Of a stretch of DNA of 32,000 nucleotides, positions 12,563-29,748 are shown piece by piece. Numbering within the stretch: position 1 is the stretch's first letter; every line of letters begins with the position of its first letter. The notes under the pieces are model-generated. The model did no database searches and was not told the DNA's origin. It saw nothing but the letters and a program-made list of their open reading frames with translations. The position numbers and the translations under genes are program-made. The DNA is from Alteromonadaceae bacterium (GTDB lineage: Bacteria; Pseudomonadota; Gammaproteobacteria; Enterobacterales; Alteromonadaceae): assembly GCA_965277695.1 (NCBI GenBank), contig CBDIDQ010000114.1, positions 4,914 through 36,913 on the forward strand, in the 5' to 3' direction.

Positions 12563-14167
12563 ATGGCCCGTAAAAGAAAAAAAGATAAAGAACAAAACTG
12601 GTTAGCCAGATACGAAGTGCTCAGTGGTGTTGCTGGCGCTATTATTGCCGCGATAGTGGTTGTCTCGTTGACGATATTTGTCAATAAACCAGCATCGCCA
12701 CCGGCCACGCTAAACAACAGTGGCAGTGGCATTGCCGTTGTTAATACTGGCAAAGGTGATGTTAATTTTTCTCCCGGTTACACTATTTCGCAACATGAAC
12801 AAAAACTCAAAGCGGCGATCACCAAAGAAACCCGTTACCTTGCACAGATTCATCGCGGTAAAATAACCGCAGCCAAGCTTGAAAAACAGCTGGCCGAGCA
12901 AAAAGTCGCTGAGTTACAAAACCAGTTAACTCACCTTGCAGACAGCCACCAAAAACGTATCAAGCAATTACAATCGATCAATGGCGCATTGCGGACACAA
13001 GCCAATAAAATCGACCAAAATATGTTGACACAGGCAACTACCGCCTTAGCGACAGGCGATACCCGCGTGGCCGAGCGACTGTTTAAGCAAATCGAGGACA
13101 ACGCCCAATCGGCTACTTTAGCTGCTGCCGCTGCCGCATTTGAACGGGGTAAAATTGCCCACGCCAATCTCGATTATTATAAAGCTTATAAGCATTTCAA
13201 ACGTGCTGTGGGTTATTCACCAGATAATGCAAATTACCTAAATGAAGCCGCTATGATGGCGGGTATAGTGGCCGACTACCAGCAACAAATTCAATGGAAT
13301 GAACAGGCTCTGGTGCTTTATATTGAGCAAAAAGGTGAAAACTCAATACAAGTGGCGACGGTGCGCAATAACTTAGGTTTGACTTATCAATCTTTAGGTC
13401 AATACCTAAAAGCCATTGAGCACTATCAGTTGGCTTTAGTAGCTGATATAAAAACTTATGGTGAGTTTCACCCTGATGTGGCGATAGACCACAATAACTT
13501 AGGTTTGGCCTATAAATCTTTAGGGCAATACCAAAAAGCGATTGAGTATTATCAATTAGCCCTAACATCCGACCTAAAAACCTATGGTGAGACGCATCCG
13601 CAAGTTGCTACGTACCACAATAACTTAGGTTCGGCCTATAAGTCTTTAGGTCAATACCAAAAAGCGATTGAGTATTATCAATTGGCTCTGGCATCTGACC
13701 TGAAAACCTATGGTGAGGCGCATCCGAATGTGGCGACAGACCGTAATAATTTAGGCTCGGCCTATAAATCTTTAGGTCAATACCAAAAAGCGATTGAGTA
13801 TTATCAACTGGCCTTAACCTCAGGCATTCAAACCTATGGTGAGACTCATCCAAAAGTCGCTTTAAGACGCAGTAACTTAGGTTCGGTCTATAAGGCTTTA
13901 GGTCAATACCAAAAAGCGATTGAGTATTATCAACTGGCCTTGACCTCTGGCATTCAAACCTATGGTGAGATCCATCCAAAAGTCGCCTTAAGGCGTAATC
14001 ATTTAGGCTCGGCCTATCATTCTTTAGGGCAATACCAAAAAGCGATTGAGTATTATCAACAAGCGTTAGCTATTTTTGAAAATACTTTCGATGCCAAGCA
14101 CCGATATATAATAAAGACCAAAAAGAATCTTGCATCTGCACAAGCGGCGTTGGTTAAAAATCTTTAG
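12563..14167 (+). CDS. Membrane-anchored coiled-coil / tetratricopeptide repeat (TPR_12, kinesin-light-chain-like) protein
   Basis: 534-aa ORF. The basic N-terminus is followed by a TM helix (VLSGVAGAIIAAIVVVSLTIFV) and a coiled-coil-like region (KLEKQLAEQKVAELQNQLTHL). About six 42-aa units of the form NNLGxAYKSLGQYQKAIEYYQLALxSDLKTYGExHPxVA follow. Confidence 0.9.
   Translation: MARKRKKDKEQNWLARYEVLSGVAGAIIAAIVVVSLTIFVNKPASPPATLNNSGSGIAVVNTGKGDVNFSPGYTISQHEQKLKAAITKETRYLAQIHRGKITAAKLEKQLAEQKVAELQNQLTHLADSHQKRIKQLQSINGALRTQANKIDQNMLTQATTALATGDTRVAERLFKQIEDNAQSATLAAAAAAFERGKIAHANLDYYKAYKHFKRAVGYSPDNANYLNEAAMMAGIVADYQQQIQWNEQALVLYIEQKGENSIQVATVRNNLGLTYQSLGQYLKAIEHYQLALVADIKTYGEFHPDVAIDHNNLGLAYKSLGQYQKAIEYYQLALTSDLKTYGETHPQVATYHNNLGSAYKSLGQYQKAIEYYQLALASDLKTYGEAHPNVATDRNNLGSAYKSLGQYQKAIEYYQLALTSGIQTYGETHPKVALRRSNLGSVYKALGQYQKAIEYYQLALTSGIQTYGEIHPKVALRRNHLGSAYHSLGQYQKAIEYYQQALAIFENTFDAKHRYIIKTKKNLASAQAALVKNL
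13351..14090 (+). repeat. Intragenic tandem repeat, 126-bp period, about 6 units (encodes the TPR units)
   Basis: The string caataccaaaaagcgattgagtattatcaa recurs about every 126 bp (near 13525, 13651, 13777, 13903 and 14029) with very few nucleotide differences. Confidence 0.85.
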
Positions 14168-14570
14168 GTCATACGATGGTTTTGGATCGTCAAGCCAACT
14201 AAGAGCTGATGCCTTTTTAGCATCCGATTAAATAGGGTATTGATCAAAACCACGAATGAATTCGCGCCTAAGTTTGCTAACTTTGCCGTAGACGAGGTTT
14301 CAACCTCGTTAATGTTGAGGGATAATTGTCACCTTAATTTGCGCTAGATGATCAGCGCTATTTTACGTTTATCTACCATAAAGTGTGTGCTTTTCTCTTA
14401 ACTTTCTTAACTTCCTTCTATCACATCTCAAAATATGATCACCCGCAAGTCATTATTGCAGAGCGTGGTTTTTATCTATTCATGGGGAAAAGCCAGACGT
14501 CAAAAAATAACCCACAGTGAGCTGATTAGCTTCACTGGTTATTAAATTATTCCAGATAAAGGATAAGACT

Positions 14571-14717
14571 ATGCTCAATGAACAGAAACACCCAATATCA
14601 TCGAAAGATAACGAACCCACTTCAGTTAAGCATACTGATAATAAACTGGCTTTGCCAGAAACCAGCGATTCACAGACTAAGGGGACGGGAAGAGACGAAA
14701 ATGAAGATTCCACTTGA
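14571..14717 (+). CDS. Possible small ORF (48 aa) of cassette 1
   Basis: AAGGA lies 6 nt upstream of the ATG. My translation is MLNEQKHPISSKDNEPTSVKHTDNKLALPETSDSQTKGTGRDENEDST. The acidic C-terminal tail (TGRDENEDST) parallels the tail of the 15115-15327 ORF (TGRDEEEEE). Part of that similarity lies inside a shared DNA repeat, so coding status is uncertain. Confidence 0.3.
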   Translation: MLNEQKHPISSKDNEPTSVKHTDNKLALPETSDSQTKGTGRDENEDST

Positions 14718-14889
14718 TAGGCGTTATGATTGTTAGTGGTCGAGCATTTATTTAGGTTGTACGAAGTAGTGATGCTCGACATGGCTAACAAGCGACCTTG
14801 GAACGAAGCGGTCGGACTTTTTAACTATTTTCTTTCAACCCGTCGGGCGTTAAGGCTTTTTAGAGGCACTTTATAGTGCCTCTAAAATT
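14676..14889 (+). repeat. Structured composite repeat, copy 1 (three hairpin modules, attC-like middle module)
   Basis: Alignable with 15289-15512. Module H1 is GTTAGTGGTCGAGCA..loop..TGCTCGACATGGCTAAC. Module H2 is CTAACAAGCGAC..46 nt..GTCGGGCGTTAAGG (xAAC-NNN-CGAC / GTCG-NNN-GTTRRR). Module H3 is the perfect hairpin TAGAGGCAC-tttata-GTGCCTCTA at 14861-14884. Confidence 0.7.
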
Positions 14890-15114
14890 GACTAATCCGA
14901 GCTAATACAATGGTTTGATAAGAACCTTCAACATTCACGAGATTAAAATTTCGACTACGTAGAATGGCTGCGCCTCGCATTATTTTCCGTCAATCGCTTA
15001 ACTTTCTTAAGTTGTGCTTAAGCCTGATTTTCTCCAATACGGCAATGCAAGATAATTTGAATCGTTGGTACCAGCAACCTGATCAATCTTCAAATTAACT
15101 AGGAGTTTTTTAAA

Positions 15115-15327
15115 ATGAAAAAAACGACAGAGCAGAAATTAATTGAACCACAAAATATCCTTTTTAACAAAATGTTGCCAGCCAAAAGTAAGCAGCCAAT
15201 TGACAGCCTTGTGTCGAGTAAACCATCAATTTTCACAAAGTTTGAGTTTAAACGGCTAAATAAGCTGATGAAAATGTTTAGCAACCTGACTAAGGAAACT
15301 GGTAGGGACGAAGAGGAAGAGGAATAA
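15115..15327 (+). CDS. Small hypothetical protein (70 aa) of cassette 2, acidic C-terminus
   Basis: AGGAG lies 9 nt upstream of the ATG. The ORF is MKKTTEQKLIEPQNILFNKMLPAKSKQ...TKETGRDEEEEE and is followed directly by repeat copy 2. Confidence 0.45.
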   Translation: MKKTTEQKLIEPQNILFNKMLPAKSKQPIDSLVSSKPSIFTKFEFKRLNKLMKMFSNLTKETGRDEEEEE

Positions 15328-15512
15328 TTCCCCTTAATAAGGAGTTAGGATTGCCAGTGGTCGAGCACTTTATTTGCATGAAGTAACGCGATTTTTACTC
15401 GACCTAGCAAACGAGCGACTTAGCAACGAAGCGAGCAAGGACATTTTAGCTGTTCGCTATTAACCTGTTGCTCGTTAAAGCTTTTAGAGGCACTTAGCAG
15501 TGCCTCTAAAAT
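15289..15512 (+). repeat. Structured composite repeat, copy 2
   Basis: Same three modules as copy 1. H1 is GGTCGAG..loop..CTCGACC. H2 is CAAACGAGCGAC..46 nt..GTTGCTCGTTAAAG. H3 is TAGAGGCAC-ttagca-GTGCCTCTA at 15485-15508. The stems are conserved while the loops differ. Confidence 0.7.
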
Positions 15513-15815
15513 TATTCATTTTACCCAACACAATTGGGCAATAAACGATGATATTTCAAGTGTTTTCGGCCAATTGGTGAATTTCGGTTCACAATAGTGA
15601 CCAGTGAGGTTTGAAATACCACTAAAGCACCGTTTTTGTAATCGAAAACGCAATCGGAAATACAATTCATTTTTCTTTTGTCATAGTTGATCTTTAATTT
15701 AACATAATAATTAATTCATCTAAATTACGCTTTAGAAGAGTCAAGAGCTTGAAATTTTTTATTGCTTTGCGTAGTCTTGTTTAATCTCTTGTCTGCTGGT
15801 GTTATATTATACACT

Positions 15816-15835
15816 ATCAGTCTACCTTCAAATTA
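15816..15835 (+). promoter_or_regulatory. Repeated asymmetric motif, site A (candidate Ter / Tus-binding site)
   Basis: ATCAGTCTACCTTCAAATTA, ending 1 nt before the GTG of the recombinase ORF. Confidence 0.45.
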
Positions 15836-16843
15836 GTGATTTCAACTGCTATGACCCTTGCCACAAATCGTCTTCAAGCCGCATTAGCTTACCAACCCGG
15901 TGAAATGGTGGCTGCTAAACCAGAAAAATTCATTCGGGTTTTTGATGGCACTAACCCAGCACATAAATATTTACAGCAATTAGGGTCTAAAAACAGCCAA
16001 GCAACTATGGGTTATGTGCTGGATCGAGTCGCTAAAGTATTATTGCGTGATGCTGATGTTCGACTCGATGCGATTAATTGGATCACTGTCACCGATGTGC
16101 ATTTAATGGCCTTGATCCGCTATTTCAGCGATGAAGTAAAACTCTCTCCTTATACCGTTAGTTTGTACGCTTCGGCGGTGAAATCGGTGATGGTCGAAGC
16201 CTATTTTCTTGACATGATTAACGAAAAACAACTGAAATTAATCCAACGGGTGAAAATCCCCCGAGGTTCACGTATTCGTCAACGAACTGCCTTGAGTCTG
16301 ACTGAAATCCAAACTTTTTTTGCTGCTTGTGATGATGGCACTGCCCTTGGCGCACGAGATGCTGCGGCTTTTTCGGTATTGGTGGGCTGCGGTTTACGTC
16401 GCGAAGAAGCGGCAACCCTGGCGATGGAAAATATCGATTTTGCTGTGGCTGAATTAAAAATCATTGGTAAAGGCAATAAACAACGAATGGTGCCATTGCA
16501 AACAACCGTTGAGGATAAATTACTCGATTGGATCGACAATTGGCGCGGCGAATACCCGGGGGCATTATTTACCGGACTACATAAAAATGGCAGCATCACT
16601 GACCAACAACTGACGGTTTCTGGGCTGTATAAAGCGATTAAAAAACGCGGTGTATTGCTGCCGATCCAATCGTTTATGATCCACGATTTACGTCGAACCT
16701 ATGGCACTTTATTGCTCGATAATGATGTTGATGTGTTTACCGTACAAGAATTGCTAGGTCATGAATCGGTTGATACCACTAAAAAGTATGATATGCGTGG
16801 CAATGACCGCAAACGTAAAGCGGTCGATACGTTGAAGTTTTAA
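15836..16843 (+). CDS. Tyrosine-type site-specific recombinase/integrase (not IntI-type)
   Basis: 335-aa ORF starting at GTG 15836, with an alternative ATG at 15851. The catalytic signature is present: GLRREE (Arg), KGNKQRMVPL (Lys), HDLRRT (His-x-x-Arg), LGHESVDTTKKY (His..Tyr). The stretch between the Lys and the HxxR motif is short, so the extra domain typical of integron integrases is absent. Confidence 0.85.
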   Translation: MISTAMTLATNRLQAALAYQPGEMVAAKPEKFIRVFDGTNPAHKYLQQLGSKNSQATMGYVLDRVAKVLLRDADVRLDAINWITVTDVHLMALIRYFSDEVKLSPYTVSLYASAVKSVMVEAYFLDMINEKQLKLIQRVKIPRGSRIRQRTALSLTEIQTFFAACDDGTALGARDAAAFSVLVGCGLRREEAATLAMENIDFAVAELKIIGKGNKQRMVPLQTTVEDKLLDWIDNWRGEYPGALFTGLHKNGSITDQQLTVSGLYKAIKKRGVLLPIQSFMIHDLRRTYGTLLLDNDVDVFTVQELLGHESVDTTKKYDMRGNDRKRKAVDTLKF

Positions 16844-16873
16844 TCTCCACCAGCACCAAAACGTAGCAGCAAA

Positions 16874-17776
16874 TTACAATATACCAATCAATTTTAATGG
16901 TCTGAACAGGCTTTCTGCTCCTGGTGGCAATTTGCTTTGCGGTGGATTTTCATCCCTGACAAAGGACTTTAATTCAGTGCCAGATGGTAACGAGTTACTT
17001 TTTTGGTCTAATAAAATCCACGGCATAATGGCATTAAACCGAGTGGTTTTGAGTTTATCATTGACATAATGGCTGTAGTCGGTGACGGGAAAGGTGCGGT
17101 AAACCTTTTCTCGCTGGATACTACGGTAATTGCCCTGTTGAATTTTGGCCATGGTGGCTTCGATGTTGGCTTGCCATTCTTGCAGGTCGACAAATGCTTT
17201 GGGTTTATGCTTTTGTTCAGCCAGCCAGTTAATGGCTTCTTTGGGGGTATAACTATAGTTAACCTGTCTTGAGCGGCACCAGCTAAACCAGACGCTTTTT
17301 ACCTGTCGTTGACTGTAACTGATATGACGATACAGTTGTTCGGTCATCACCTGTGGAAACATTTGGTGAATAAAAGCATGGCGTTGTTGATGATTGCGGT
17401 TGTGCTGCACAATGGTTTTGATGGCGTCTTTTTTGCTGTTGATTTGGTCGATAAGATTGATCACCGTATCGGCAGGCAAGCTGGAGACAATTAAACCCGG
17501 CATTCGCGAGACAAACCGGGTAGAGCAACCATCAGCGACGTAAAAGCGCTTATAGTAATTCAGCACGGTTAAGCGATGTAGCCATTCATTGAGTTTGGTC
17601 ACTTCAATGAACGGCTGACCATGGGCTAATACCTGTTCTTCATTGATACTTAATACTGGCGAGGTTTCATAACCGATAAATGATAGTGAGTCGTCATTAT
17701 CAAGCAAGTCACTGAGTTTATCGGTTAGTGATATTAATTGAGCCATCAGCATTTTAACTTCAGTTTTTTCATTCAT
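16874..17776 (-). CDS. tus: DNA replication terminus site-binding protein (Tus homologue)
   Basis: About 300 aa, against 309 aa for E. coli Tus. By-eye alignment to E. coli Tus as I remember it gives these pairs: RMPGLIVSSL..LIDQINSKKDAIKTIV vs RLPGVLCYQV..HIQHINKLKTTFEHIV; RHAFIHQMFPQVMTEQLYRHIS vs [29 protein letters not shown] vs LRFGWAN; LQEWQANIE vs REEWQRKLE; C-terminal LFRPLKLIGIL vs LRLIIPRLHLY. I prefer ATG 17776 (MNEKTEV...) over the track GTG at 17791. Confidence 0.75.
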   Translation of the reverse strand: MNEKTEVKMLMAQLISLTDKLSDLLDNDDSLSFIGYETSPVLSINEEQVLAHGQPFIEVTKLNEWLHRLTVLNYYKRFYVADGCSTRFVSRMPGLIVSSLPADTVINLIDQINSKKDAIKTIVQHNRNHQQRHAFIHQMFPQVMTEQLYRHISYSQRQVKSVWFSWCRSRQVNYSYTPKEAINWLAEQKHKPKAFVDLQEWQANIEATMAKIQQGNYRSIQREKVYRTFPVTDYSHYVNDKLKTTRFNAIMPWILLDQKSNSLPSGTELKSFVRDENPPQSKLPPGAESLFRPLKLIGIL

Positions 17777-17794
17777 TGGTTTGCAAGCCACATC

Positions 17795-17813
17795 ATCAGT
17801 CTACCTTAAATTA
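17795..17813 (+). promoter_or_regulatory. Repeated asymmetric motif, site B (candidate Ter / tus operator)
   Basis: ATCAGTCTACCTTAAATTA. It lies 4 nt upstream of the tus GTG (17791) and 19 nt upstream of the tus ATG (17776). It sits just downstream of a predicted -10 box on the tus strand. Confidence 0.5.
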
Positions 17814-17821
17814 TATTAACT

Positions 17822-17851
17822 ATAATAAAAGTTCATGCCACAGTCAATCAA
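17822..17851 (-). promoter_or_regulatory. Candidate sigma70 promoter of tus
   Basis: The minus strand reads TTGATT (-35, 17846-17851), an 18-nt spacer, then TATTAT (-10, 17822-17827). Motif site B starts 8 nt downstream of the -10 box. Confidence 0.35.
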
Positions 17852-17868
17852 CCTGGATGTTTTTTGTT

Positions 17869-19137
17869 TTATGCCTTAAAAGGTTCATACGATCCGGCAT
17901 AACCGAGCTGACCGAAAATACCAAGAAAAGCGGTTATTATCTTTTCATTGTCTTTGAGCCTTGGCGCAGCTTCGATGCCAATCAGTGATAAAACCAATGG
18001 CTGATCTGGGTTTTGCTGTTCGGCGCGTTTTTGTAATTCAAGGTTATCTAATGTTGTTCCGTCTGACAAAATACAACACAACAGGTCAGGCGACATAATG
18101 AAAGGTTGTGACTGACTACTGCGATAAGCCAGCATATTTTCGTTCACAATATAAATAGTGATGATGTCATTGTCTTTGGTTTTCAGCGTTAGTTTGCCGT
18201 GATCTAGCGCTTTTTCGGTGGCTGATTCAAAGGCTATCACGCTGACTGATTGGGCGAGAATTGTTGCGGCAAAACCAGAGGCTTGTAATGTCTCAACCGT
18301 CAATGCGGCATAATTGATGTTTGGCGTTGCCACTGGTGTCTGTCGAAGGGCTTGTCCGAGCATTCTTGAGTGTGAAAGTCCGCCTTCAATAGCCAAGGCT
18401 TTGAGTTGATGACCTTGCATCATCCACATTGCTAATCCAGCTAAATTACCAAAAGCGTCAGTTGTCACTATTCCTCCGGCTAATGCCTCTGCGGCATTAG
18501 TTTGCTTAACTTCGACAAAAGCGGATTGCTGTTTATCAAGCGCTTCGGTTTCATTGGTCAACACTAGCCCTTTGTCTAGTAATTGATCTTGAGTGCCAAA
18601 GGTGAGGCAAGATAAAGTGGGTACCGCCCTGCCTGCGCCATCGGCATCGACAACTGGAATATTCAGGTCCCACGCGGTATTGATTGGCGTGATACTACTC
18701 ACTGCGCCTATCTCTACTGGCACGATGAACTTTGCTGTACAGCCGCTGTATTTTTGCAACTTTTTTACCGCTCGGGTTGGCGAGTTGTACTGCACATTTG
18801 CTAGCGCATTAGCCGCCTCAGGCGAACCTAAAAATGCACTAACCACAACCCAATCATCATCACCGACCGCAGCCAGTGGCACCATTTCGACTTGTTGGTT
18901 ATTGTCCATGGTTTCAATCATTTCAAACGCCATACTTTTTGGACCGCCACCACCGGCACTGAGTAATGCAGCCCCATTGACGATATCCAATAAGGCTTGT
19001 TTGTCTAGCAAGGTTCCCTGACATTGATTGGGTGATAACGTCTGGTGATTGGCTCGATGTAATACATGTCGTGCCGAGTCAGGAATGGATGGTTTTTTGG
19101 TGTCAAATCGTTTGGAGTCAGCATCAAGTAATAGCAT
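17869..19137 (-). CDS. DUF917 family protein (S-methyl-thiohydantoin desulfurase-like fold family)
   Basis: 422-aa ORF. Family-typical motifs are present: GAALLSAGGGGP, FLGSPEA, VPVEIGAVSSITP, IPVVDADGAGRAVPTL. Confidence 0.8.
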   Translation of the reverse strand: MLLLDADSKRFDTKKPSIPDSARHVLHRANHQTLSPNQCQGTLLDKQALLDIVNGAALLSAGGGGPKSMAFEMIETMDNNQQVEMVPLAAVGDDDWVVVSAFLGSPEAANALANVQYNSPTRAVKKLQKYSGCTAKFIVPVEIGAVSSITPINTAWDLNIPVVDADGAGRAVPTLSCLTFGTQDQLLDKGLVLTNETEALDKQQSAFVEVKQTNAAEALAGGIVTTDAFGNLAGLAMWMMQGHQLKALAIEGGLSHSRMLGQALRQTPVATPNINYAALTVETLQASGFAATILAQSVSVIAFESATEKALDHGKLTLKTKDNDIITIYIVNENMLAYRSSQSQPFIMSPDLLCCILSDGTTLDNLELQKRAEQQNPDQPLVLSLIGIEAAPRLKDNEKIITAFLGIFGQLGYAGSYEPFKA

Positions 19138-19195
19138 AAATTAGCCTGTTGTATCTTTGTTATGTTATTTAGGGATTTTGCCATCATAACAAATC

Positions 19196-19214
19196 ATCAG
19201 TCTACCTTCAATTA
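19196..19214 (+). promoter_or_regulatory. Repeated asymmetric motif, site C (candidate Ter site)
   Basis: ATCAGTCTACCTTCAATTA, in the intergenic space between the DUF917 gene start (19137) and the protease gene stop (19325). Confidence 0.45.
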
Positions 19215-19278
19215 ACTAAATCAAATAACCCTACATCCATACAGTCGATCCATCGATGAATAGTTACCATCAGATTAA

Positions 19279-19307
19279 AACCTCGTCTACCACAAAACGA
19301 CGAGGTT
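19279..19307 (-). terminator. Probable intrinsic terminator of the protease gene
   Basis: A 9-bp stem, AACCTCGTC / GACGAGGTT, with an 11-nt loop, starting 18 nt after the stop codon. On the minus strand the stem is followed by TTTTAATCTG. Confidence 0.5.
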
Positions 19308-19324
19308 AATCTCATCTGCTATTT

Positions 19325-22300
19325 TTAACGGTTTCTTCTACGGCGAATAAATGCCAGAGGTGCTAATAACAGCCCCCATAAACCTAAAGCACCACCACTA
19401 GAGCGGTTTTCGACCGTGACATTAATTTGCGTTGCTGCACTGACTTCATCACCATCAAATGCTGTCACACTAAAGACTACTGTGGTATCAGTTGACACCT
19501 CAGGTCCGGTAAAGCTCATAGAAGCACCCGTTTCGGTTAATGTCGCACCGTCTTTTGTCCAACGATAGGTTAAGCTGTCGTTTTCAGCATCAGTGGCAAC
19601 TACAGCTAACATGACATCTTCACCTTCACGAATAACCACGTTTGGTTGTGCAGCAGTGACTACAGGTGCAACATTAGCAACAATCTCCACGACAATTTGA
19701 CTCGCTGAGCTGGTTGCATCACCATCAGATGCAGTAACCGCAAACACCACAGTAGTATCTTGCGATACCGCTGGTGCGGTGAAATTCAATGAAACACTCG
19801 CATGGTCAAGCAACACGCCATCTTTAGTCCAACGATAAGCAAAAGCGTCATTTTCCGGGTCGACGGCACTGACACTGAGCATCACTGACTCTTTTTCTTT
19901 GACACTAACAAACGCTTGATCAACAGTGACTATCGGTGCTCGATTAGCCAGCACAGTCACTGCCATTGTCACCGCTTCACTGGTTTCATCACCATCAGTC
20001 GCAACCACACTGAAAACAACGACTTTATCTTGTGTTAAACCCGGCGCAGTAAAATCATACCAAGCACTATTGTTATCCAATGCCTCACCATCCATAGTCC
20101 ATTGGTAAGTTAATGCATCGTTTTCAGGGTCTACTGCCATCACCGCCAAAGTGGTCGATGTTTTCTCTCGGATACTGATTTGTGCTTGCTCAGTGCTAAC
20201 AACCGGTGCTCGGTTAGCAACCACCGTCAAGGCGATTTCAACCGGCTGGCTGGTTTCATCACCATCGTTAGCCGTTACACTAAAGGTGATCAAAGTATCT
20301 GCTGACACACTCGCTGCGGTATAGTTTAATGATGAGCTATTATTGGCTAAATCAATACCATTTGCCTGCCATTGATAGCTCAACCGATCATTTTCAGGGT
20401 CTGTTGCGCTAACCGCTAACATCACCGACCCACGTTCTTTCACTGAAACCTGCTGTTGCGTCGTAGTCACTACCGGCACCTGATTAGCAATAACGGTAAC
20501 CACCATTTGAATCGCTTCACTGGTCGCTGTACCATCTGAGGCAGTAACACTAAACACCACTTCTTTATCCTGCGAAACAGCAGGGGCGACATATTCAAAT
20601 GTGCTGGCGGTATTTGCAATCAACTCACCATCGATCATCCACTGATACGTGATGTCATCACCGTTAGCGTCTGTGCCATTAACCATTAACGTCAATGCTT
20701 GCTGTTCCTTAACACTGGTAATCCCCTGTTCGGTCGTCACCGTCGGCGCTTGATTGATAATAACCATAATAGAAAATTCGCTACTGCGTGATAATAGCTC
20801 ACCATCAAATGCGGTTACTGAAAAACTATACACTTCATCGCTCGATCCTTCAGGAGCCTTAAACGTCAAAGTCGCACTTGTGGTGCTAACATCAATAGCA
20901 CTGCTGCCGCCGGTTTGCGTCCACTGATAAGTCAAGGTGCTGTTATCATGATCAACAGCATTAGCCGTCAAAGTCACTTCACCACCACCATTGGTGCTAG
21001 CAGGACCTTCAACATTGGTCACCACTGGCTCACGATTTACACACGCACCAACATTAGCCCCAAGTGAAGGAAAAGGAGTCTGTACAGTAGCATTAGTAAA
21101 TCTAAAGTTGTCTATGTTCCAACCCCAGGATGCCACCGAACCATCCGAACCAATACGAAAGCGGAATTTAACCGACTTGTTATTCAAACTGCCAGCAGCA
21201 AACGTTAAGCTTTCTGGACTGATCCACAGGCTTTCAATAATACCAATAAACCCAGCACGACCGGGCAATTCAGGATTGAAATCGGTGATATTACCGTTGT
21301 AACCGTTAAGAAATGAACCGCCGGCAGCAACCACATCAGTCCACTCGCCGCCATCAATACTAATCTCCATAACCCCGCCATCCCAAGGCGTAGTATCGTC
21401 CGGGTTATTTGGATCACCGCGTTCGAAGTCATAATAATGTTCAAATTGAACGGCAAAATCACCACTCGCAGCCACGGTCACCTCAGGTGTGACTAAGCTG
21501 ATATCATTTTGTTGAGATAAGTTAGGTCCAAAACCAACGTTGCCAAAATCAACATCATCAAACACGCCCCACTGCGACAAGAAGTGCTCTGGATCTTCTT
21601 CGCTGTCTACCTGCCTCGTACGTTGCCAGCCCGACCAAACATTGACGCTATCTTCAAAATCTTCAATCTCACGATCATTGCTTAAATCAAAGTTAACATT
21701 CAAGCTCGCGGTCATTGGTTTGCTCAATATCACTTCAGCATCGTCAGACATTAGAGTCACTGTGATTATGACTGTATCATTAGTGTCGCCACTGTTTAAC
21801 GTCGCTTCAATGGTGCCGCTTGTGGTATCACGCCACTGGGCCAAATCGGCAAAATCAATCATGCCGTCATTAGCAAAAGTGATATCGCTATCGCTAGTCA
21901 GCTTAGCTTTAATACCGCTAAGCAATTCAGTACCCGTGTTGTTGATGCTCACTGTCAACAGCCCGGTTTCGCCGACATCTAAAATATTATCTGTATCACA
22001 AAACGCACCGTGAGTGCCATTGTATCGGTTATCCAGCACAATACTGTCCAGCGCCACAGCACGACCAAATGCCTCGAAGCTTTCGACCGTACCGGCATGA
22101 CCTCGGCTTTCAAACGTGCCATCAAAACCGGCATCAAAACGTTCAGGTGATTGGGCTGTTAACCCCATACCGCGCTTAGCAAAAGCGGCACGAATAACCT
22201 GATGATCAGCCGCATCAGTTGCCATTGCCACAGCCAGTAAAGCATCACGAGCTTCGGTAAAAGTCGGGGCAAAAGGTGTCATTTTCATGCTGGCGACCAT

Positions 22301-24370
22301 GTAATCCATCATCCGGCTTTGGGCTTCACTAAAACTCACACCATCACGATTAAGCATCGCCGTATAGGACTCCCATAGCATCAATGCCCAAATTTCACCG
22401 GAGTTATGCACCTCTGAATTCAATGCCCCATCCATATGAAAATCGGCTTGATAAAGATTACTGATGGGGTGAGTGGTAGGTACTTTGACTTGATCTTGAA
22501 TGTGTTTAAAGGTAAACGCATTATGTTCCATATTAGTACTGTAAGGGGCACGACGCAGACCAAAGAAATAGGCAAACTCTACAAAACCGTTGTTAACCGC
22601 ATAACCGCCGTCATTATAAGGAGCTTGCCATTGATCATTACCAACCAGTTGCTGATCGGCTTCACGGGCCATGGTCATTAAAGCAAAAAAGTCACCCCAG
22701 CCCTCGCCCATACTCGCCCCCTGATTATTGGCATACATACCGCCACCAGTTAAACGGCTAGAGATATAATGCCCCCATTCGTGTTCGACAATGGCATTAT
22801 CCACCGTGCCGTCACGAATAGTATCGGTTTGCCAAAGAAACATATGCATACGTGGTGAAGCACCATCCGCAGGTGTGGCCATGGTGGCGTTATTAACACC
22901 AGAGTAGTCTTGCGCCTCAGCACGAAGCACATCGCCGTCAATACCACCACGACCAAAGTTATCGGTCTGGGCGACGCCCGCCACCTCATCAAAACCATGG
23001 TTGTAATAAAGGTCATGCAAATAATTATTGACATAAAACAAGTTCACCGTCGCGGCGTTGATATTTTCGTTTGAATTGACCCTATCATCATGAGTAAAAA
23101 CGTAACCAAAGGTATTAGCACTGGTGGTAGTCGGTCTGATATCGCCCTCGTTAAATCCATCTGGTGCAGACAAGTCAGCGTAAGCATCAACATTGTTGCC
23201 GGTTGTTACTGTCGCGCCAGTTGGCAGCCACGGATCGCTTGTGCTGATACCGCTATGCTCAAGCGTGACGTCATTCATCGCAGCGGGGACTTCAGTCACC
23301 TTATCATTAAAAACCCCGCTCGGATGGGGTGTTAATGCATTACCCATAGGATTATCAAAAGGGGTAAAAGGCGCAGTGCTGTCGGCAAAGGTTTTATAAG
23401 TGAAGGTATCACGTTGTACTAGGTTAGTTCGATTCAACACCTGGCCATCAACAGCGGAGATCACATGGCTGTAAGCAATCAGGTCTTTGCTATTTTTTTC
23501 GCTGATCATCACTTCAACATAATAAGCGGGGATTAAGGTTTTTCTGCCTGGATAATAAACTTTTTTACCCCGGGGTTGTTCAGAAAAAGCGTAATTATCA
23601 CTGCTGGCTTTAAACCGCTGATAATTGGCTTTTTTATCTAGCAACGACAGTTTGACCGCATCGCCAGTAATATTGTTAAAGGCTTTACTGATGGCTTCTT
23701 CGGCAGACAAAGTAAACTGGTCAACTAATGTTTTTTGTGGCGCTGGTAGGTTGGCAAAATAACCACTGGTTGCGACTAATTCCATGTTTTGATTGAGTAA
23801 AACATTCAATTGGCGGCCATACACTTCGATGTCATTAACCTTTTGCTGATATTTGCTGATGATCGATCCGCGTTTATTATCAGAGACATATTTAAGTTCA
23901 GCCTGTTTAAAGCCACTGGCTGACACCCCATGTTTAGCCCCCATGGCATTGACATAACCTCGGGTCGCCTGTTCGATGGCGGAACCGCGATTAAACACAG
24001 AATAGGGTATTGCAGCGGTTTTTTGTGCGCCCTTAGCCCAACTAAAAGTGTGAGTATTTAAGCTGTTATCAAAGTGGTCGCCTTTTGCTGCGAGGTAAAT
24101 CCCCGATCCATTAAGATTGGCGGTAGCTGCGGTGTTGGCTTTCTTTGAAGCAGATAAATTCGCTCGCTGATGGATTGATTTCACCATCGCTTGGGGTTGT
24201 TGTTGTCGGGCTGTTTGAGCAAACTGATCATAGCTGGGCAAGCTAGCTAAAGCGGGTAAAGTTGCTGGGGCTGATAGCGTAGCTGCGCTTGCTACACTAG
24301 AGAGTCCGGTAGCAAACCCGGTAGAAAGTGCAGCAGAAACCGCAGCAGTAATAAGTGTTGTTTTATCCAT
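19325..24370 (-). CDS. Secreted M36 (fungalysin-type) zinc metalloprotease with six tandem Ig-like (PKD-like) repeats and a GlyGly-CTERM sorting signal
   Basis: Long ORF. I prefer ATG 24370 (MDKTTLITAAVSAALSTGFATGLSSVASAA signal peptide, AAGGGA Shine-Dalgarno) over the track start at 24415. The zinc site HEWGHYISSRLTGGG resembles fungalysin HEYTHGLSNRLTGG. Six units of about 90 aa carry the pattern NxAPVVT..V.V.E....L.V.A.D.END.LTYQW..DG......F.AP.VS.D..VVFSVTA.DG. The C-terminus SSGGALGLWGLLLAPLAFIRRRRNR fits the GlyGly-CTERM/rhombosortase signal (Gly-Gly, TM helix, Arg cluster). Confidence 0.9.
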   Translation of the reverse strand: MDKTTLITAAVSAALSTGFATGLSSVASAATLSAPATLPALASLPSYDQFAQTARQQQPQAMVKSIHQRANLSASKKANTAATANLNGSGIYLAAKGDHFDNSLNTHTFSWAKGAQKTAAIPYSVFNRGSAIEQATRGYVNAMGAKHGVSASGFKQAELKYVSDNKRGSIISKYQQKVNDIEVYGRQLNVLLNQNMELVATSGYFANLPAPQKTLVDQFTLSAEEAISKAFNNITGDAVKLSLLDKKANYQRFKASSDNYAFSEQPRGKKVYYPGRKTLIPAYYVEVMISEKNSKDLIAYSHVISAVDGQVLNRTNLVQRDTFTYKTFADSTAPFTPFDNPMGNALTPHPSGVFNDKVTEVPAAMNDVTLEHSGISTSDPWLPTGATVTTGNNVDAYADLSAPDGFNEGDIRPTTTSANTFGYVFTHDDRVNSNENINAATVNLFYVNNYLHDLYYNHGFDEVAGVAQTDNFGRGGIDGDVLRAEAQDYSGVNNATMATPADGASPRMHMFLWQTDTIRDGTVDNAIVEHEWGHYISSRLTGGGMYANNQGASMGEGWGDFFALMTMAREADQQLVGNDQWQAPYNDGGYAVNNGFVEFAYFFGLRRAPYSTNMEHNAFTFKHIQDQVKVPTTHPISNLYQADFHMDGALNSEVHNSGEIWALMLWESYTAMLNRDGVSFSEAQSRMMDYMVASMKMTPFAPTFTEARDALLAVAMATDAADHQVIRAAFAKRGMGLTAQSPERFDAGFDGTFESRGHAGTVESFEAFGRAVALDSIVLDNRYNGTHGAFCDTDNILDVGETGLLTVSINNTGTELLSGIKAKLTSDSDITFANDGMIDFADLAQWRDTTSGTIEATLNSGDTNDTVIITVTLMSDDAEVILSKPMTASLNVNFDLSNDREIEDFEDSVNVWSGWQRTRQVDSEEDPEHFLSQWGVFDDVDFGNVGFGPNLSQQNDISLVTPEVTVAASGDFAVQFEHYYDFERGDPNNPDDTTPWDGGVMEISIDGGEWTDVVAAGGSFLNGYNGNITDFNPELPGRAGFIGIIESLWISPESLTFAAGSLNNKSVKFRFRIGSDGSVASWGWNIDNFRFTNATVQTPFPSLGANVGACVNREPVVTNVEGPASTNGGGEVTLTANAVDHDNSTLTYQWTQTGGSSAIDVSTTSATLTFKAPEGSSDEVYSFSVTAFDGELLSRSSEFSIMVIINQAPTVTTEQGITSVKEQQALTLMVNGTDANGDDITYQWMIDGELIANTASTFEYVAPAVSQDKEVVFSVTASDGTATSEAIQMVVTVIANQVPVVTTTQQQVSVKERGSVMLAVSATDPENDRLSYQWQANGIDLANNSSSLNYTAASVSADTLITFSVTANDGDETSQPVEIALTVVANRAPVVSTEQAQISIREKTSTTLAVMAVDPENDALTYQWTMDGEALDNNSAWYDFTAPGLTQDKVVVFSVVATDGDETSEAVTMAVTVLANRAPIVTVDQAFVSVKEKESVMLSVSAVDPENDAFAYRWTKDGVLLDHASVSLNFTAPAVSQDTTVVFAVTASDGDATSSASQIVVEIVANVAPVVTAAQPNVVIREGEDVMLAVVATDAENDSLTYRWTKDGATLTETGASMSFTGPEVSTDTTVVFSVTAFDGDEVSAATQINVTVENRSSGGALGLWGLLLAPLAFIRRRRNR

Positions 24371-24474
24371 TATGTTCCCTTCGGTGTTACCAATTAAAAT
24401 AAACTGACCTACCACAATATAGCAGTATTATTAGTAAACACAGATTTTTTGCTGGCGGTAATGTTGCAACAAAG

Positions 24475-24494
24475 AAAATTGAAGGTAGACTGAT
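24475..24494 (-). promoter_or_regulatory. Repeated asymmetric motif, site D, inverted relative to A-C (candidate Ter site)
   Basis: The plus strand reads aaaaTTGAAGGTAGACTGAT; its reverse complement is ATCAGTCTACCTTCAATTTT. It lies between the LysR stop (24579) and the protease start (24370). Confidence 0.45.
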
Positions 24495-24578
24495 GAAAAA
24501 CAATGGATAAATAAGAAAGGTAAGTGGCTTAATTTTTGCGATATAATGAACGCTAAAACAAAGGCAAAGGGCTGATTT

Positions 24579-25514
24579 TTAATTCATCACCTTAAGCACC
24601 GCTTGGCGTCGAGCATCACGATTATTAAGAAATACAGTCACAATATTTTCTCGAAACCAGGTCAATCCGGCGTCTTTATCTTGACGCTTATGCCACCAAA
24701 TCGATAACACGGTGTCGGCAACATGGATCGGTGGTTTGGTGATCCACAGTTGTTGGTCGGCCACTTGCGGGTCAATGGTTTCTATCGGTAAGATGGCAAT
24801 CAGATCACTTTGCAAAATCACCGGAATAGCCGAAGAAAAATTATTCACCGTCATCGCCACCCGGCGAGTCAAACCCAACTGACTTAATGCTTCATCGGTA
24901 GGCCCGCTGCTGTCGCCAGACAAGGTGACCAGCAGATGTTCAGCTTGAGCAAAGGCGTCAACGGTTAGTGTTTTTCCGGCCAGAGGATGACCAATACGCA
25001 TCACGCAAACATAATCAATATCGGCTAAATGCGACGAAAAAATATTACTCGGTGGTGCCGGACGAGCACTGAAAACTAAATCGACTTCAGCGTCATCGAG
25101 CAATTGTTGAGATTTACCGATGGTGTAAGGAATGGCATAAAGATTAATGCCCGGCGCATGACGCTGAAAGAATAACCGCATCGACAACCACACACTGTCA
25201 ACCGCCAAATCCGTCAGTGCAACCCGAAAGGTGCGTTGCGCGGTTTGCGGTTCAAACACCTCGGGGCTGATCGCCTGCTCAATCTGATACAGCGGATCTC
25301 TAATCAAAGCCCATAAATCCTTGGCATAACTGGTCGGTTGAATATTGCGGCCATCTTTAACAAACAACTCGTCCTTCCAGATGGTTCGCATTCGGGATAC
25401 CGCATTCGATACTGCCGGTTGGGTCATCGCTAAACGTTCAGCCGCTCGGGTGATTGAACGCTCGGTCATGATATGATCAAAAATCACCAGTAGGTTCAAT
25501 ACTTGAGGTCGCAT
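24579..25514 (-). CDS. LysR-family transcriptional regulator
   Basis: 311-aa ORF preceded by AAGGAAA. The N-terminal winged-HTH signature is LLVIFDHIMTERSITRAAERLAMTQPAVSNAVSRMR. Length and architecture are typical of the LysR family. Confidence 0.9.
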   Translation of the reverse strand: MRPQVLNLLVIFDHIMTERSITRAAERLAMTQPAVSNAVSRMRTIWKDELFVKDGRNIQPTSYAKDLWALIRDPLYQIEQAISPEVFEPQTAQRTFRVALTDLAVDSVWLSMRLFFQRHAPGINLYAIPYTIGKSQQLLDDAEVDLVFSARPAPPSNIFSSHLADIDYVCVMRIGHPLAGKTLTVDAFAQAEHLLVTLSGDSSGPTDEALSQLGLTRRVAMTVNNFSSAIPVILQSDLIAILPIETIDPQVADQQLWITKPPIHVADTVLSIWWHKRQDKDAGLTWFRENIVTVFLNNRDARRQAVLKVMN

Positions 25515-25805: not shown

Positions 25806-26015
25806 TATAACCCCAATTCATTGCCACTTAATTTGCTGTGAACCATCAAAACGCGAATGAATTCGCGTCTACCGCTTGTTTATAACCCCAATTCATTGCC
25901 AGCTTAATTTACTGTGAACCATCAAAACGCGAATGAATTCGCGTCTACCGCTTGTTTATAACCCTAATTCATTGCCAGCTTAATTTACTGTGAACCATCA
26001 AAACGCGAATGAATT
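25806..26015 (+). repeat. Three tandem copies of a 75/76-bp unit, each carrying a REP-like hairpin; the third copy is interrupted by the IS
   Basis: Units start at 25806, 25881 and 25957. The unit is tataaccccaattcattgccagcttaatttactgtgaaccatcaaaacgcgaatgaattcgcgtctaccgcttgtt. The hairpin is ACGCGAA-tgaa-TTCGCGT. The rest of copy 3 (cgcgtctaccg) resumes at 28093, after the IS. Confidence 0.85.
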
Positions 26016-26034
26016 CTGTCTCTTAGTCACATCT
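26016..26034 (+). repeat. IS left terminal inverted repeat
   Basis: CTGTCTCTTAGTCACATCT. Confidence 0.85.
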
Positions 26035-26172
26035 TTATTTGCATTTTTGGCTTGTGTCTGATTCAGCTTAAACTTGTGTCTTATTTAGTATCATTGAAAT
26101 TAACTGTGATATTTCACTTGCTTTTTTTCACCATTGTGATCAAATACGCTTTTTTCACAGGGTGGTCAGTAG

Positions 26173-27618
26173 ATGTTTGAATCCGATGCCGAAAGCTGGG
26201 CTGAAAAAACTTTCGGAAAAGCGCAGTTGAATGACAAAAGAAGAACAAAACGCTTGGTTAAGGTCGCCGCTGATATGGCCGACGGGGCGGGCAAGTCAGT
26301 AGTTAAAGCGAGTAAGGATTCTGCCAGTATTGAAGGGGCCTACCGTTTTATTGAAAATAATTATGTTGATGCGTCAGCCATCGCTCAGGCCGGTTTTGAA
26401 ACAACGGCGGCAGAATGTGCTGAGCGCCGTCTTGTTCTTGCGCTCGAAGATACCACAGGGTTAAGTTATACACATGATGTGTGTGACGATCTTGGGAATA
26501 ATCCGGCAGGCAAAAACCGCGATGTCAAAGGCCGCTCACTTTTCCAGCATTCTATTCTTGCGCTAGATGCAGACACGGAAACCGTGATTGGCTTGGCACA
26601 TCAACAGAATTATATTCGTAGTGAATTACCAAAAGCGTTGAAAGGTTCCGGTTCAGCCCGGGCGCGGCGACCTAAAGAGGAGAAAGATAGTTATCGTTGG
26701 GAAGAATCTGCTGCCAAAATGGACGAAACCTTCATCCGAACTGATAATGTGATTCATGTGTGCGACAGAGAAGCTGACTCATATGAGTATATGGATCAAC
26801 ATTTAAATAACGATAGGCGATTTATTATCCGGTGTCAGCACAATCGAGCGCTTCAATTGCCCAATCATGATAAGACCGTCAAATTAAAGGATATGATAAA
26901 CTTTCCGGTTGCGGCTGAACAATCCCTTAAAATTGAACAAAAAGGGAAAAGTAAAAACACCAAAAATAGACCCGCTCGGACGGCGAAAATGGGCATCAGT
27001 TACCATTCAGTTTCCTTCAAAAGAACACATGACGCCGATAAAAACACCCGAGATGAAATGTCGCTGAACTTAGTGATTTGCCGTGAGCTTGACTTACGCG
27101 GTGAAGCGTCTGATTTATGCTGGTTTTTATACACCAATGAACCAATCAACACGATAGAAGATGCGCAAAAAATTGTTCGCTACTATGAGTTACGTTGGCG
27201 GATAGAAGATTTCCACAAAGTTTGGAAATCAGAGGGTACTCAGGTTGAAAAACTGAGGCTGCAAACCCGTGCCAATACTGAACGCATGGGTACCATTTTA
27301 GCGTTTGTGGCAGTGCGGTTGATGCAATTAAAGGAGATGGCCGAAAATAAAGAAAAAGCCAAACAGCAATCCTGTGAGCTCATGTTCAGTGTGGTGGAAT
27401 GGCAAATGCTGTGGTTGAAAATAGAGGAAAAGAAACTCCCGACAGAACCGCCTTCCATTTTTTGGGGTTATTATGCATTGGCGAAACTGGGCGGCTGGCA
27501 CGATAGTAAAAGGACAGGACGAGTGAGTACGAAAACTATTTGGGAGGGTTGGGCGGCGTTAATGCTGATGCTTGATGGACACCGAACCATGACAGAAAAC
27601 ATTGCCCTATCAGGATGA
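26173..27618 (+). CDS. IS4-family (Tn5/IS50-like) DDE transposase
   Basis: 481 aa, against 476 aa for Tn5 Tnp. The N-terminus, WAEKTFGKAQLNDKRRTKRLVKVAADMA..GKSV...IEGAYRFIENNYV, parallels Tn5 WAKSVFSSAALGDPRRTARLVNVAAQLA..GKSI...QEGAYRFIRNPNV. It also has ALEDTTGLSY (first DDE Asp region) and YYELRWRIEDFHKVWKSEG (YREK region, compare Tn5 YSQRWRIEEFHKAWKTGAG). Confidence 0.9.
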   Translation: MFESDAESWAEKTFGKAQLNDKRRTKRLVKVAADMADGAGKSVVKASKDSASIEGAYRFIENNYVDASAIAQAGFETTAAECAERRLVLALEDTTGLSYTHDVCDDLGNNPAGKNRDVKGRSLFQHSILALDADTETVIGLAHQQNYIRSELPKALKGSGSARARRPKEEKDSYRWEESAAKMDETFIRTDNVIHVCDREADSYEYMDQHLNNDRRFIIRCQHNRALQLPNHDKTVKLKDMINFPVAAEQSLKIEQKGKSKNTKNRPARTAKMGISYHSVSFKRTHDADKNTRDEMSLNLVICRELDLRGEASDLCWFLYTNEPINTIEDAQKIVRYYELRWRIEDFHKVWKSEGTQVEKLRLQTRANTERMGTILAFVAVRLMQLKEMAENKEKAKQQSCELMFSVVEWQMLWLKIEEKKLPTEPPSIFWGYYALAKLGGWHDSKRTGRVSTKTIWEGWAALMLMLDGHRTMTENIALSG

Positions 27619-28065
27619 ACAACGGTCAAATATTAGAGGATGTTCCTCAAAATACACACAAAAAGTGGACAGTCTAGCAGCGACGGACTTGAACTGATGA
27701 TTCTGCCTGTAATTAATTTAGCGCTGATCATATAACATCATCTGGCAATCATCGGCATTGAAACGGTTAAGTATGAAAAAGGAACTATCGCCAAAATTAA
27801 AATTGGAAATCCTCACCGACTTACTCGTATTGGTGTGCATCACTAAGGCTCTGCGCCACTGTACAAGAGCCTGCTCTCTAAAAGGTAATCACAATCATTT
27901 GATATTACCGCCTTTTTAGGGGGCGCGACGGCTCTATGTTTCGATAAAATGTAACAGCACGTAGCAACGCCCACCTTTTGTAGATAAAAAAGATAATGCC
28001 CAAATTTATTCGCAAAATCAGCAATTACGCTAAATAGTGACAATCAAATTTAGATAGTACCATTA

Positions 28066-29742: not shown

Positions 29743-29748
29743 TATCCT

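Follow-up and report, generated by a model that had tools for sequence, protein, structure and literature searches.

A divergent Tus homologue and four copies of a conserved asymmetric box in marine gammaproteobacterial DNA: a candidate compact fork trap

The window analysed here is the whole of a 32,000-nucleotide stretch of DNA from an Alteromonadaceae bacterium (NCBI GenBank assembly GCA_965277695.1, contig CBDIDQ010000114.1, positions 4,914 to 36,913 of the forward strand). It carries a divergent homologue of the E. coli gene tus together with four copies of a short asymmetric box, and from the sequence alone these had originally been predicted to form an ultra-compact Tus-Ter fork trap. 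A pattern search of the window located the 16-mer ATCAGTCTACCTTMAA at 15816-15831 (+), 17795-17810 (+), 19196-19211 (+) and 24479-24494 (-), with three copies in one orientation and one in the other; a fifth copy was not found in the 32 kb, even at up to two mismatches. Dinucleotide-preserving shuffles contained no match (0/100), and the chance expectation is 0. When the four sites were aligned with 60-nt flanks, identity was limited to about 20-22 nt (TCATCAGTCTACCTTCAATT) and the flanks were mutually unrelated, so the sites are not copies of a larger repeat. The full box sequence is TTGAAGGTAGACTGATGA, and the site pattern for it was written as TTGAAGGTAGACTGAT-like. No dyad symmetry was found in the box: as single-stranded DNA the 21-mer folds at 0 kcal/mol, with no self-complementarity.

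With start codons that agree with catalogued proteins, all four boxes are intergenic and lie 19-110 nt upstream of start codons (Table 1). Box A stands 20 nt ahead of the recombinase ATG at 15851 and box B 19 nt ahead of the tus ATG at 17776, while box C falls within the 19137-19325 gap and box D between the protease ATG at 24370 and the LysR stop at 24579. The copies are spaced 1.4-5.3 kb apart and span 8.7 kb in total. Box B begins 6 nt downstream of the predicted -10 element of tus, and box C overlaps a weak predicted -35 element. The interval between C and D (19215-24474, 5.26 kb) has the M36 protease gene as its sole gene. Most of what the original prediction had said of the sites was therefore borne out by the pattern search, the shuffles and the gene annotation, namely that the motif occurs four times within 8.7 kb and nowhere else in the window, in a 3:1 opposed arrangement, that its conservation runs a few bases beyond the core, that every copy is intergenic and without an internal dyad, and that the inner interval holds only the protease gene. 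Its statement that site B abuts the tus start codon was mistaken, as the real ATG is 19 nt away and the box abuts only an unused GTG.

Table 1. Positions of features in the window and, where a locus is named, in related tus loci
Feature	Position	Strand	Remarks
Site A	15816..15835	+	downstream of tus, same orientation as B and C; position weight matrix (PWM) score 18.0; kept in strains L026-L028
Site B	17793..17813	+	tus-proximal; tus-sense reading TAATTTAAGGTAGACTGATGA; position -35 relative to tus start
Site C	19194..19214	+	innermost of the three co-oriented copies; complementary to D at 20/20 positions
Site D	24475..24496	-	sole box in the opposite orientation; identical in strains L021-L023
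tus homologue, 300 aa	16874..17776	-	Pfam PF05472, hhalign, AlphaFold2 (AF2)/Foldseek
Predicted sigma-70 promoter of tus	17819..17847	-	TTGACT-17-TATAGT, 10/12 matches
Tyrosine recombinase, 330 aa	15851..16843	+	convergent with tus; PF00589, E 1.5e-27
S-Me-THD/DUF917-like gene	17869..19137	-	between boxes B and C; passenger gene
M36 (fungalysin-type) secreted protease, PKD/Ig repeats	19325..24370	-	ATG start as called in L022/L023
LeuO/BsrA-like LysR regulator	24579..25514	-	annotation
IS4-family insertion sequence (IS)	26017-28084		Tn5-like ends CTGTCTCTTAGTCACATC; 9-bp target duplication AATGAATTC
L011 iterons	4408-5475
L011 Rep_3 gene	5523-6515
L011 box pair	6737-6902
L011 tus	6974-7942
L011 recombinase gene	8167-9138
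L011 palindrome	9178-9227
L013 module	7333-12276		layout equivalent to L011
L020 TTAAGTAYGATGTGTTCTT boxes	3029-3048, 3770-3789, 3867-3883	-, -, +	tus ATG at 3896
L034 TTAAGTAYGATGTGTTCTT boxes	1154-1175, 1269-1287, 1370-1389	-, -, +	tus ATG at 1387

The product read from the tus ATG is the catalogued protein P0001. It matches the Pfam family PF05472 ('Ter') with 101.5 bits against a cut-off of 22 (E 5.9e-29), over profile positions 4-271 of 296, and hhalign aligned it with E. coli Tus over 263 columns with a probability of 96.7% and 20% identity. The AF2 model of the protein has a predicted local distance difference test score (pLDDT) of 83.7 and a predicted template modelling score (pTM) of 0.73. 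Only Tus structures (1ECR, 4XR0, 4XR1 and 4XR2) were significant matches to this model when Foldseek was run against the PDB, with E values of about 1e-18 and template modelling (TM) scores of 0.67-0.68. Sequence searches of the PDB, with phmmer and the protein or with the clade profile, gave no match, and for this reason homology to E. coli Tus had to be sought through Pfam, hhalign and fold comparison. According to the hhalign mapping, E. coli Tus residues E49, H144, R139, P148 and Y156-R157 are conserved and K89 is replaced by R, and these identical or similar residues are mostly invariant; the residue aligned with H144 is invariant in the clade. Three of the four lock-pocket residues differ in the same mapping (I79 to V80, F140 to H133 and G149 to Q142, with H144 matching H137). 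The Tus superfamily comprises 370 clusters at 50% identity among 1.84 billion representatives, 29 of which reach E 1e-30 against the clade profile, and the closest plasmid Tus proteins are 25-30% identical to the Tus of the window. By the Pfam, hhalign and fold matches the gene at 16874-17776, already read as a Tus homologue in the prediction, encodes a genuine, very divergent Tus-fold protein.

Relatives of this protein, 32-72% identical to it where identity was measured, were gathered from metagenome and genome assemblies; a scan of the genome collection with the clade profile gave one locus, L007. The core (A)GGTAGAC, or a variant of it differing at one or two bases (AGGTTGAG, AGTTAGAC or GGGTAGAC), is found on the tus-sense strand ahead of tus, at a distance of 23-105 nt, in L001, L006, L007, L010, L011, L013, L014, L016, L035 and L036. 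The Tus proteins of these loci include some that are 72% (L006, with ATAGAAGGTAGACGGGTGA around the box), 48% (L007, and L001 with CTGGAAGGTTGAGGTATGA around it), 40% (L016, with TATGAAGTTAGACTGAC), 35% (L010) and 32-34% (L011, L013 and L014, with CTGGAAGGTAGACACACTT) identical to that of the window. Two of the loci, L035 with boxes at -26 (+) and -254 (-) and L036 with a box at -28 (+), were obtained after the PWM had been built and conform to the same pattern. Before these two were added, exact AGGTAGAC 8-mers were tus-associated in 14 of 17 cases across about 170 kb of fetched loci and the window. In L009 the exact core occurs in the (-) orientation at about -160, and in L008 the GGGTAGAC variant occurs in the (-) orientation at about -170; no (+) copy was found in either locus. 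The neighbours of tus are mutually unrelated from locus to locus and include DUF4202, an SNF2 helicase, a nonribosomal peptide synthetase, Rep_3, an AcrVA2-like protein, endonuclease I and UmuC/UvrD-type proteins. Because the box co-occurs with tus and with no other gene, it bears the signature expected of the binding site of Tus itself.

A second, inverted box is present at -130 to -290 in L001, L010, L011, L013, L014 and L035. In the tus-sense frame the order in the window is D(-) at -6702, C(+) at -1436, B(+) at -35, tus, and A(+) at +1944, which is the (-)...(+)tus order of the relatives, stretched and provided with extra co-oriented copies. The closer relatives L006 and L016 are on short contigs and have no inverted partner within 1-2.8 kb, and distant partners may be usual in their subclade. 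The alignment of orthologous tus loci called for by the prediction has conserved copies of the box upstream of tus, with an inverted partner as the rule, and the positional argument for the boxes as Tus sites was strengthened accordingly.

L011 and L013 are plasmid-type replicons in which at least 10 iterons (ATGACACTTTnTTATG) and Rep_3 are followed by two boxes with 130-200 bp between them, then by tus and a tyrosine recombinase gene convergent with it. This layout indicates that the box is neither an iteron nor a recombinase site, and by comparison with these two loci the ancestral setting would be an origin-proximal plasmid terminus, of the sort that PMC10331603 discusses for R1, R6K and Pseudoalteromonas. 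Both come from marine metagenomes and are complete plasmid-type replication and termination modules; their recombinases have their own dif-like palindromes (TTATCTAAGATAATTA/TAGTTATCTTAGATAA) immediately upstream of the gene. Upstream of tus, L001 has an unrelated repeat, TAGTGGTCAAACTATTTTGTC, in six copies (1027, 2834, 4227, 4249 and 9777 on the + strand and 9187 on the - strand), two of them 22 nt apart; this repeat looks iteron-like. In a subclade whose Tus is 33% identical to that of the window, a near-perfect palindrome, CCGGTGTACTGT-ATATAAT-AACAGTACACCGG, lies over the tus promoter (L008 at about 9885-9925, L009 at about 4190-4225 and L012 at about 35-75), and in L008 and L009 it co-occurs with the (-) GGTAGAC-type box at -160/-170. 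Members of another subclade, 43-45% identical (L002, L003/L004 and L005), always have tus followed by a convergent alpha/beta-hydrolase gene, a synteny that suggests a 'resident' tus. No clear GGTAGAC box was found in L002, L003/L004 or L005, which have only weaker AAG(A/T)TA(A/G)A-like sequences. Nor was a convincing box pair found upstream of tus on an Alteromonas plasmid or a V. cholerae plasmid, and L019 has a single TTTAGGTAGAATGTCTC at -130.

The polarity of the boxes was considered by reference to E. coli TerB. As the prediction had stated, TerB lies immediately upstream of E. coli tus: read directly, it is on the tus-sense strand, directly after a TATAAA element, and ends 11 nt before the tus ATG. 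The blocking face of TerB is its 5' (AATAAG, G6) end, and it stops forks moving in the direction of tus transcription. In two Pseudoalteromonas chromosome-2 records (L020 and L034), TTAAGTAYGATGTGTTCTT occurs three times directly ahead of tus, twice in the (-) and once in the (+) orientation, and the inner gap measures 84-90 nt. This box agrees with TerB at 11 of 19 positions, TAAGTATG among them, and is oriented as TerB is; through it the (-)...(+)tus geometry is tied to a recognisable Ter. If the boxes are efficient polar barriers, the conserved order implies a trap, because only inward blocking faces leave the interval between such barriers replicable. From position and geometry we infer the blocking face, and a trap would be the coherent reading of (-)...(+)tus. 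An ungapped alignment of the window box with TerB was set aside as evidence of polarity, as two registers give about 6-7 matches each.

The base composition of the window changes at one of the boxes. On the + strand, the GC skew at third codon positions (GC3 skew) is +0.16 to +0.22 in four genes at 1250-12151 (strands -, -, + and -) and +0.24 in tus; it is +0.04 in the protease gene, which occupies the interior of the proposed trap and is intermediate between the flanks, then -0.19 in the LysR gene and -0.20 to -0.52 in four genes at 28266-31247. A single change-point model with the IS excluded placed the change at 24,341 (support interval 24,137-25,185), that is, at site D, with twice the log-likelihood difference (2dlnL) equal to 76, a value that none of 500 shuffles reached. 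The skews of the flanks are opposite over at least 12 kb and at least 3 kb and are independent of gene strand. The switch from + to -, G-rich on the left and C-rich on the right, has the polarity expected where forks converge. A skew switch far from this locus had been named as grounds for rejecting the prediction; tried locally, within the 32-kb window, the prediction withstands that test, as the GC3 switch falls at site D.

The reading that we favour is that the Tus homologue recognises the four boxes as its cognate Ter-type sites; a single Tus monomer would bind each asymmetric box, about 21 bp long, and the box would then be a one-way barrier to the replicative helicase. If the polarity of the boxes relative to tus is taken as that of E. 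coli TerB, then C, followed by B and by A, would stop leftward forks (in window coordinates) and D would stop rightward forks. Site A would be an outer back-up barrier for leftward forks, and site B would be the equivalent of TerB, serving both autoregulation and the arrest of leftward forks. Forks could enter the interval 19215-24474 from either side and could not leave it, so that replication would end there. The context of box B parallels that of TerB because both follow the -10 element of tus, and from this position Tus probably represses its own gene. The module appears to derive from a plasmid-type arrangement in which an inverted pair 100-290 bp apart lies directly upstream of tus; in the window two genes now separate the inverted pair, and extra co-oriented copies appear to have been added. 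As to compactness, the locus is indeed compact, as predicted, and it is not unique in this, since relatives have pairs only 100-290 bp apart, some of them beside a Rep_3/iteron plasmid origin. From the sequence comparisons it is very probable that the four boxes are the binding sites of this Tus homologue. That they act as a fork trap is a somewhat likelier reading than its opposite, with binding, monomer stoichiometry, polarity, arrest and autoregulation all inferred. That they mark the terminus of the host replicon we put forward tentatively.

Several observations weigh against the proposed trap. The Tus homologue falls far below the NCBIfam equivalog cut-offs NF002810 and TIGR02648 (75.4 bits against 323 and 31.2 bits against 178.3), and as only part of its lock pocket is conserved, there is no ground to presume a C6-type lock. 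The window box shares only an AAG.TA.G-type similarity with the left half of E. coli Ter and departs from the Ter consensus (G6 and the GTTGTAACTA core). Because this similarity is weak, the polarity rests on position and geometry and not on homology. In the palindrome subclade, the half-site is similar to the box as well as to the E. coli Ter core, and its head-to-head orientation does not suit a simple trap. A dif site had been looked for at or near the locus, and none was found within the 32-kb window: the E. coli-type 28-mer has no match there at up to three mismatches, and the best relaxed match has nine. The skew switch is seen within 32 kb only and does not set the global extremum; it might be a local one, arising from horizontal-transfer boundaries. 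The region is plastic: it contains an IS and a tandem repeat, and left of 15603 a segment varies between strains. At related loci the GC3 skew gives a mixed picture, as L010 on the left (+0.26) and L003 on the right (-0.22) fit, and L001, L008 and L009 are flat or opposite. Finally, all boxes lie in the 5' regions of genes, which fits an operator role as well.

In its pure form such a role would mean that the Tus homologue binds the boxes as a local transcription factor, repressing tus through B, the recombinase through A, the S-Me-THD-like gene through C and the protease through D, with no part in replication. To our knowledge, no member of the Tus family is a pure regulator. The placement of every box 19-110 nt upstream of a start codon agrees with this explanation, as do the position of B just after the predicted tus -10, the overlap of C with a weak predicted -35, and the autoregulation of E. 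coli tus via TerB (cited in PMC10331603). The boxes, however, face both ways with respect to the genes downstream (A and D one way, B and C the other), and in relatives the inverted partner is kept whatever gene adjoins. Moreover, partner D is 6.7 kb from the tus promoter yet identical to C at 20/20 positions, and the skew switch maps to D; we regard regulation alone as improbable. It is unlikely, though a little less readily dismissed, that the sites are genuine Ter-type sites within a relic, the unit of tus, Ter and recombinase being the remnant of an integrated plasmid or island and the skew switch a composition boundary. The Rep_3/iteron replicons L011 and L013, with their pair, tus and convergent recombinase, speak for such a history, as do the plasmid- or phage-like gene content of L035, the erratically distributed 'mobile' tus genes described elsewhere (Galli et al. 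2019, PMC6549158), the IS, tandem repeats and strain-variable segment of the window, and the lack of a dif site found in it, and for the origin of the module it is plausible. As an account of the present locus it is countered by the opposite GC3 skews, which extend beyond the module into the flanks (at least 12 kb and at least 3 kb), and by the near-identity of the four sites, which argues for current selection. In addition, no Rep gene or iteron array was found in the window, and neither the tus region nor the IS has DNA similarity to 72,556 plasmids.

The original prediction had also raised the adjacent tyrosine recombinase as the owner of the boxes, which would then be its core sites, with C and D inverting the protease segment and the direct copies A, B and C allowing deletions. 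The gene is adjacent and has site A right at its 5' end, the C/D pair is a perfect 20-nt inverted repeat, and a recombinase convergent to tus recurs in L011 and L013. The box nevertheless does not have a spacer flanked by two inverted arms, the usual form of a tyrosine-recombinase core site, and it accompanies tus with no recombinase nearby in L001, L007, L008, L010 and L035, while the L011 and L013 recombinases, which have palindromes of their own, are about 20% identical to the window enzyme. Contigs 99% identical are present in the marine samples ERZ23491250, ERZ909335, ERZ27295458 and JGI 3300025860. Three independent metagenome contigs from other marine samples, 98.5-99.7% identical and few in number, have LysR, D and the protease only in the orientation of the window, and strain variation begins at 15603 and not at a box, all of which makes the recombinase a very improbable owner. 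Less credible still is a dispersed repeat, in which the copies would be the ends of a non-autonomous transposon or miniature inverted-repeat transposable element, or a genome-wide element of the repetitive extragenic palindromic (REP) type. C and D could indeed be viewed as 20-nt terminal inverted repeats around a single gene, but the repeats enclose no transposase, their flanks are dissimilar and target duplications are lacking, and a core kept beside tus across Tus proteins 32-72% identical is unexpected for the ends of a mobile element. The LysR regulator was rejected as the box binder, since the LysR gene is missing from all related tus loci, and an iteron plasmid origin was rejected as the window has no Rep gene and its box copies are 1.4-5.3 kb apart.

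The remaining genes and repeats of the window were also recorded. The recombinase is Xer-like and non-canonical, far under the XerC/XerD cut-offs (XerC 107 bits against 335); the 330-amino-acid form starting at ATG 15851 is the catalogued one, and the exact protein is present on four contigs. The M36 protease of 1681 amino acids (C-terminus at 19325-19400) ends in SSGGALGLWGLLLAPLAFIRRRRNR, which we take to be a GlyGly-CTERM/rhombosortase-type sorting signal and which presumably points to a marine gammaproteobacterial host. A 76-nt tandem repeat of 2.8 copies at 25806-26016, with an internal CGCGAATGAATTCGCG palindrome, is interrupted by the IS4-family element, which is missing from strains L021 and L022; a 28-nt piece of the same repeat lies at 14243-14270, just after the TPR gene, so that the 11.6-kb tus region has a copy on either side. 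At 14578-15513 there are two units, each about 620 bp long (14719-14890 and 15340-15513 are 81-91% alike), each with a small open reading frame (52 and 70 amino acids) followed by a perfect 30-nt palindrome, TTTTAGAGGCACTT..AGTGCCTCTAAAA, with no T-run. Left of 15603 the sequence of strains L026 and L027 departs from that of the window. The segment 14578-15513, which lies just upstream of the recombinase gene, is variable and cassette-like, and the real target of the recombinase may lie in it. At 13352-14064 a 126-nt (42-amino-acid) tandem repeat encodes the TPR units of a 534-amino-acid protein, and the C-terminus of a 124-amino-acid protein has an Asn-rich run encoded by a CAA/AAT repeat at 29688-29736. 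No RNA genes were found, either with Rfam over the whole window or in tRNA/tmRNA scans that covered the window, L026 and L027. The metagenome contigs L024 and L025 end at the same base inside site D (24486); this was discounted as a recombination or break point, as L022 and L023 share an end at 24094, where there is no motif, and the shared ends probably come from shared reads or low coverage.

Ter sites are defined only for Enterobacterales and for plasmids that borrow their Tus. The ter of Pseudoalteromonas has been stated not to have been found (Xie 2021, PMC7858055) and non-enterobacterial ter to be 'only implicated' (Goodall 2023, PMC10331603), with its location in the tus promoter only a speculation. 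For a Tus clade that shares about 20% identity with E. coli Tus, the locus in the window and its relatives offer a specific candidate recognition sequence, with which one could ask directly if the base-flip 'lock' is a general property or is peculiar to E. coli. The loci can be placed in a series, from a pair 100-290 bp apart beside a plasmid origin, through pairs in chromosome-like contexts, to a proposed 5-kb trap at a skew switch, which is the kind of intermediate predicted by the plasmid-domestication hypothesis (Galli 2019, Goodall 2023). If the reading is true, this would be the first Ter consensus outside Enterobacterales, with living intermediates for the domestication of a plasmid system by a chromosome, and such an orthogonal Tus/Ter pair could be put to use as a programmable fork barrier. 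It is possible, though we would not call it probable, that the window is the terminus of an uncultured marine gammaproteobacterial replicon, with a plasmid-derived divergent Tus, a GGTAGAC-core Ter and the narrowest chromosomal trap (5.3 kb, three sites facing one), the skew flipping at one wall, and that an inverted Ter pair directly upstream of tus, common to Rep_3 plasmids, Pseudoalteromonas chromosome 2 and the clade of the window, is ancestral to all Tus systems.

With E. coli Tus-Ter the locus has in common the Tus fold of the protein, an asymmetric site, about 21-23 bp long, that directly follows the -10 element on the tus-sense strand a few nucleotides ahead of tus, and further copies in two opposed orientation classes. 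It differs in that the E. coli Ter is GTTGTAAC where the window has the GGTAGAC core, the two Tus proteins are 20% identical and the window protein scores under the NCBIfam equivalog cut-offs, the lock pocket is retained only in part, and Ter sites are spread over about 2 Mb in E. coli and over 8.7 kb in the window; in addition, TerB is not the innermost site in E. coli (type II trap). Narrow type I traps are known from non-Enterobacteriaceae Enterobacterales. The narrowest described are those of Edwardsiella tarda, with Ter1 and Ter2 56 kb apart, and Dickeya paradisiaca (18 kb), both with enterobacterial Ter (Toft et al. 2021, PMC8707476). Like the window, these have a tus-proximal Ter cluster as one wall, few sites, and a GC-skew flip at the trap, whereas the interior in the window, at 5.3 kb, is three to ten times narrower, its Ter is unrelated to the highly conserved enterobacterial Ter, and its host, a marine bacterium not in culture, belongs to none of the three 'resident tus' clades. 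Resident tus genes have been reported only from Enterobacterales, Pseudoalteromonas chromosome 2 and Aeromonadales, all others being 'mobile' (PMC6549158).

Plasmid termini of the R6K and R1 type are a further parallel. They have closely spaced opposed polar barriers beside a plasmid origin, as in L011 and L013, and the R6K terminus is reportedly an inverted Ter pair roughly 100 bp apart, an arrangement ascribed to work by Horiuchi and Hidaka in 1988. Both forks are blocked at the specific terminus of R6K, and the R1 system is likewise described (PMC10331603). R6K and R1, however, use E. coli-type Ter and rely on the Tus of the host, whereas elements of the L011/L013 type encode a divergent Tus of their own and have another box; in the window the pair is separated by genes, and no Rep gene or iterons accompany it. 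Pseudoalteromonas chromosome 2 (Galli 2019, PMC6549158; Xie 2021, PMC7858055) is alike in having inverted boxes immediately upstream of tus, two (-) and one (+), and differs in that its box is E. coli Ter-like (TAAGTATG.TGT), its Tus is about 25% identical to that of the window, and its tus is origin-proximal, next to ori2, on a unidirectionally replicating chromid. The replication terminator protein (RTP) and Ter of Bacillus subtilis are a functional analogue, with polar barriers in opposed groups and a Ter in the rtp promoter for autoregulation, although RTP has a fold unrelated to Tus and binds as dimers to bipartite A/B sites. Among these systems the locus in the window appears, on the comparisons made here, to belong to the Tus family while having a recognition sequence not described before and a very compact architecture that is likewise new.

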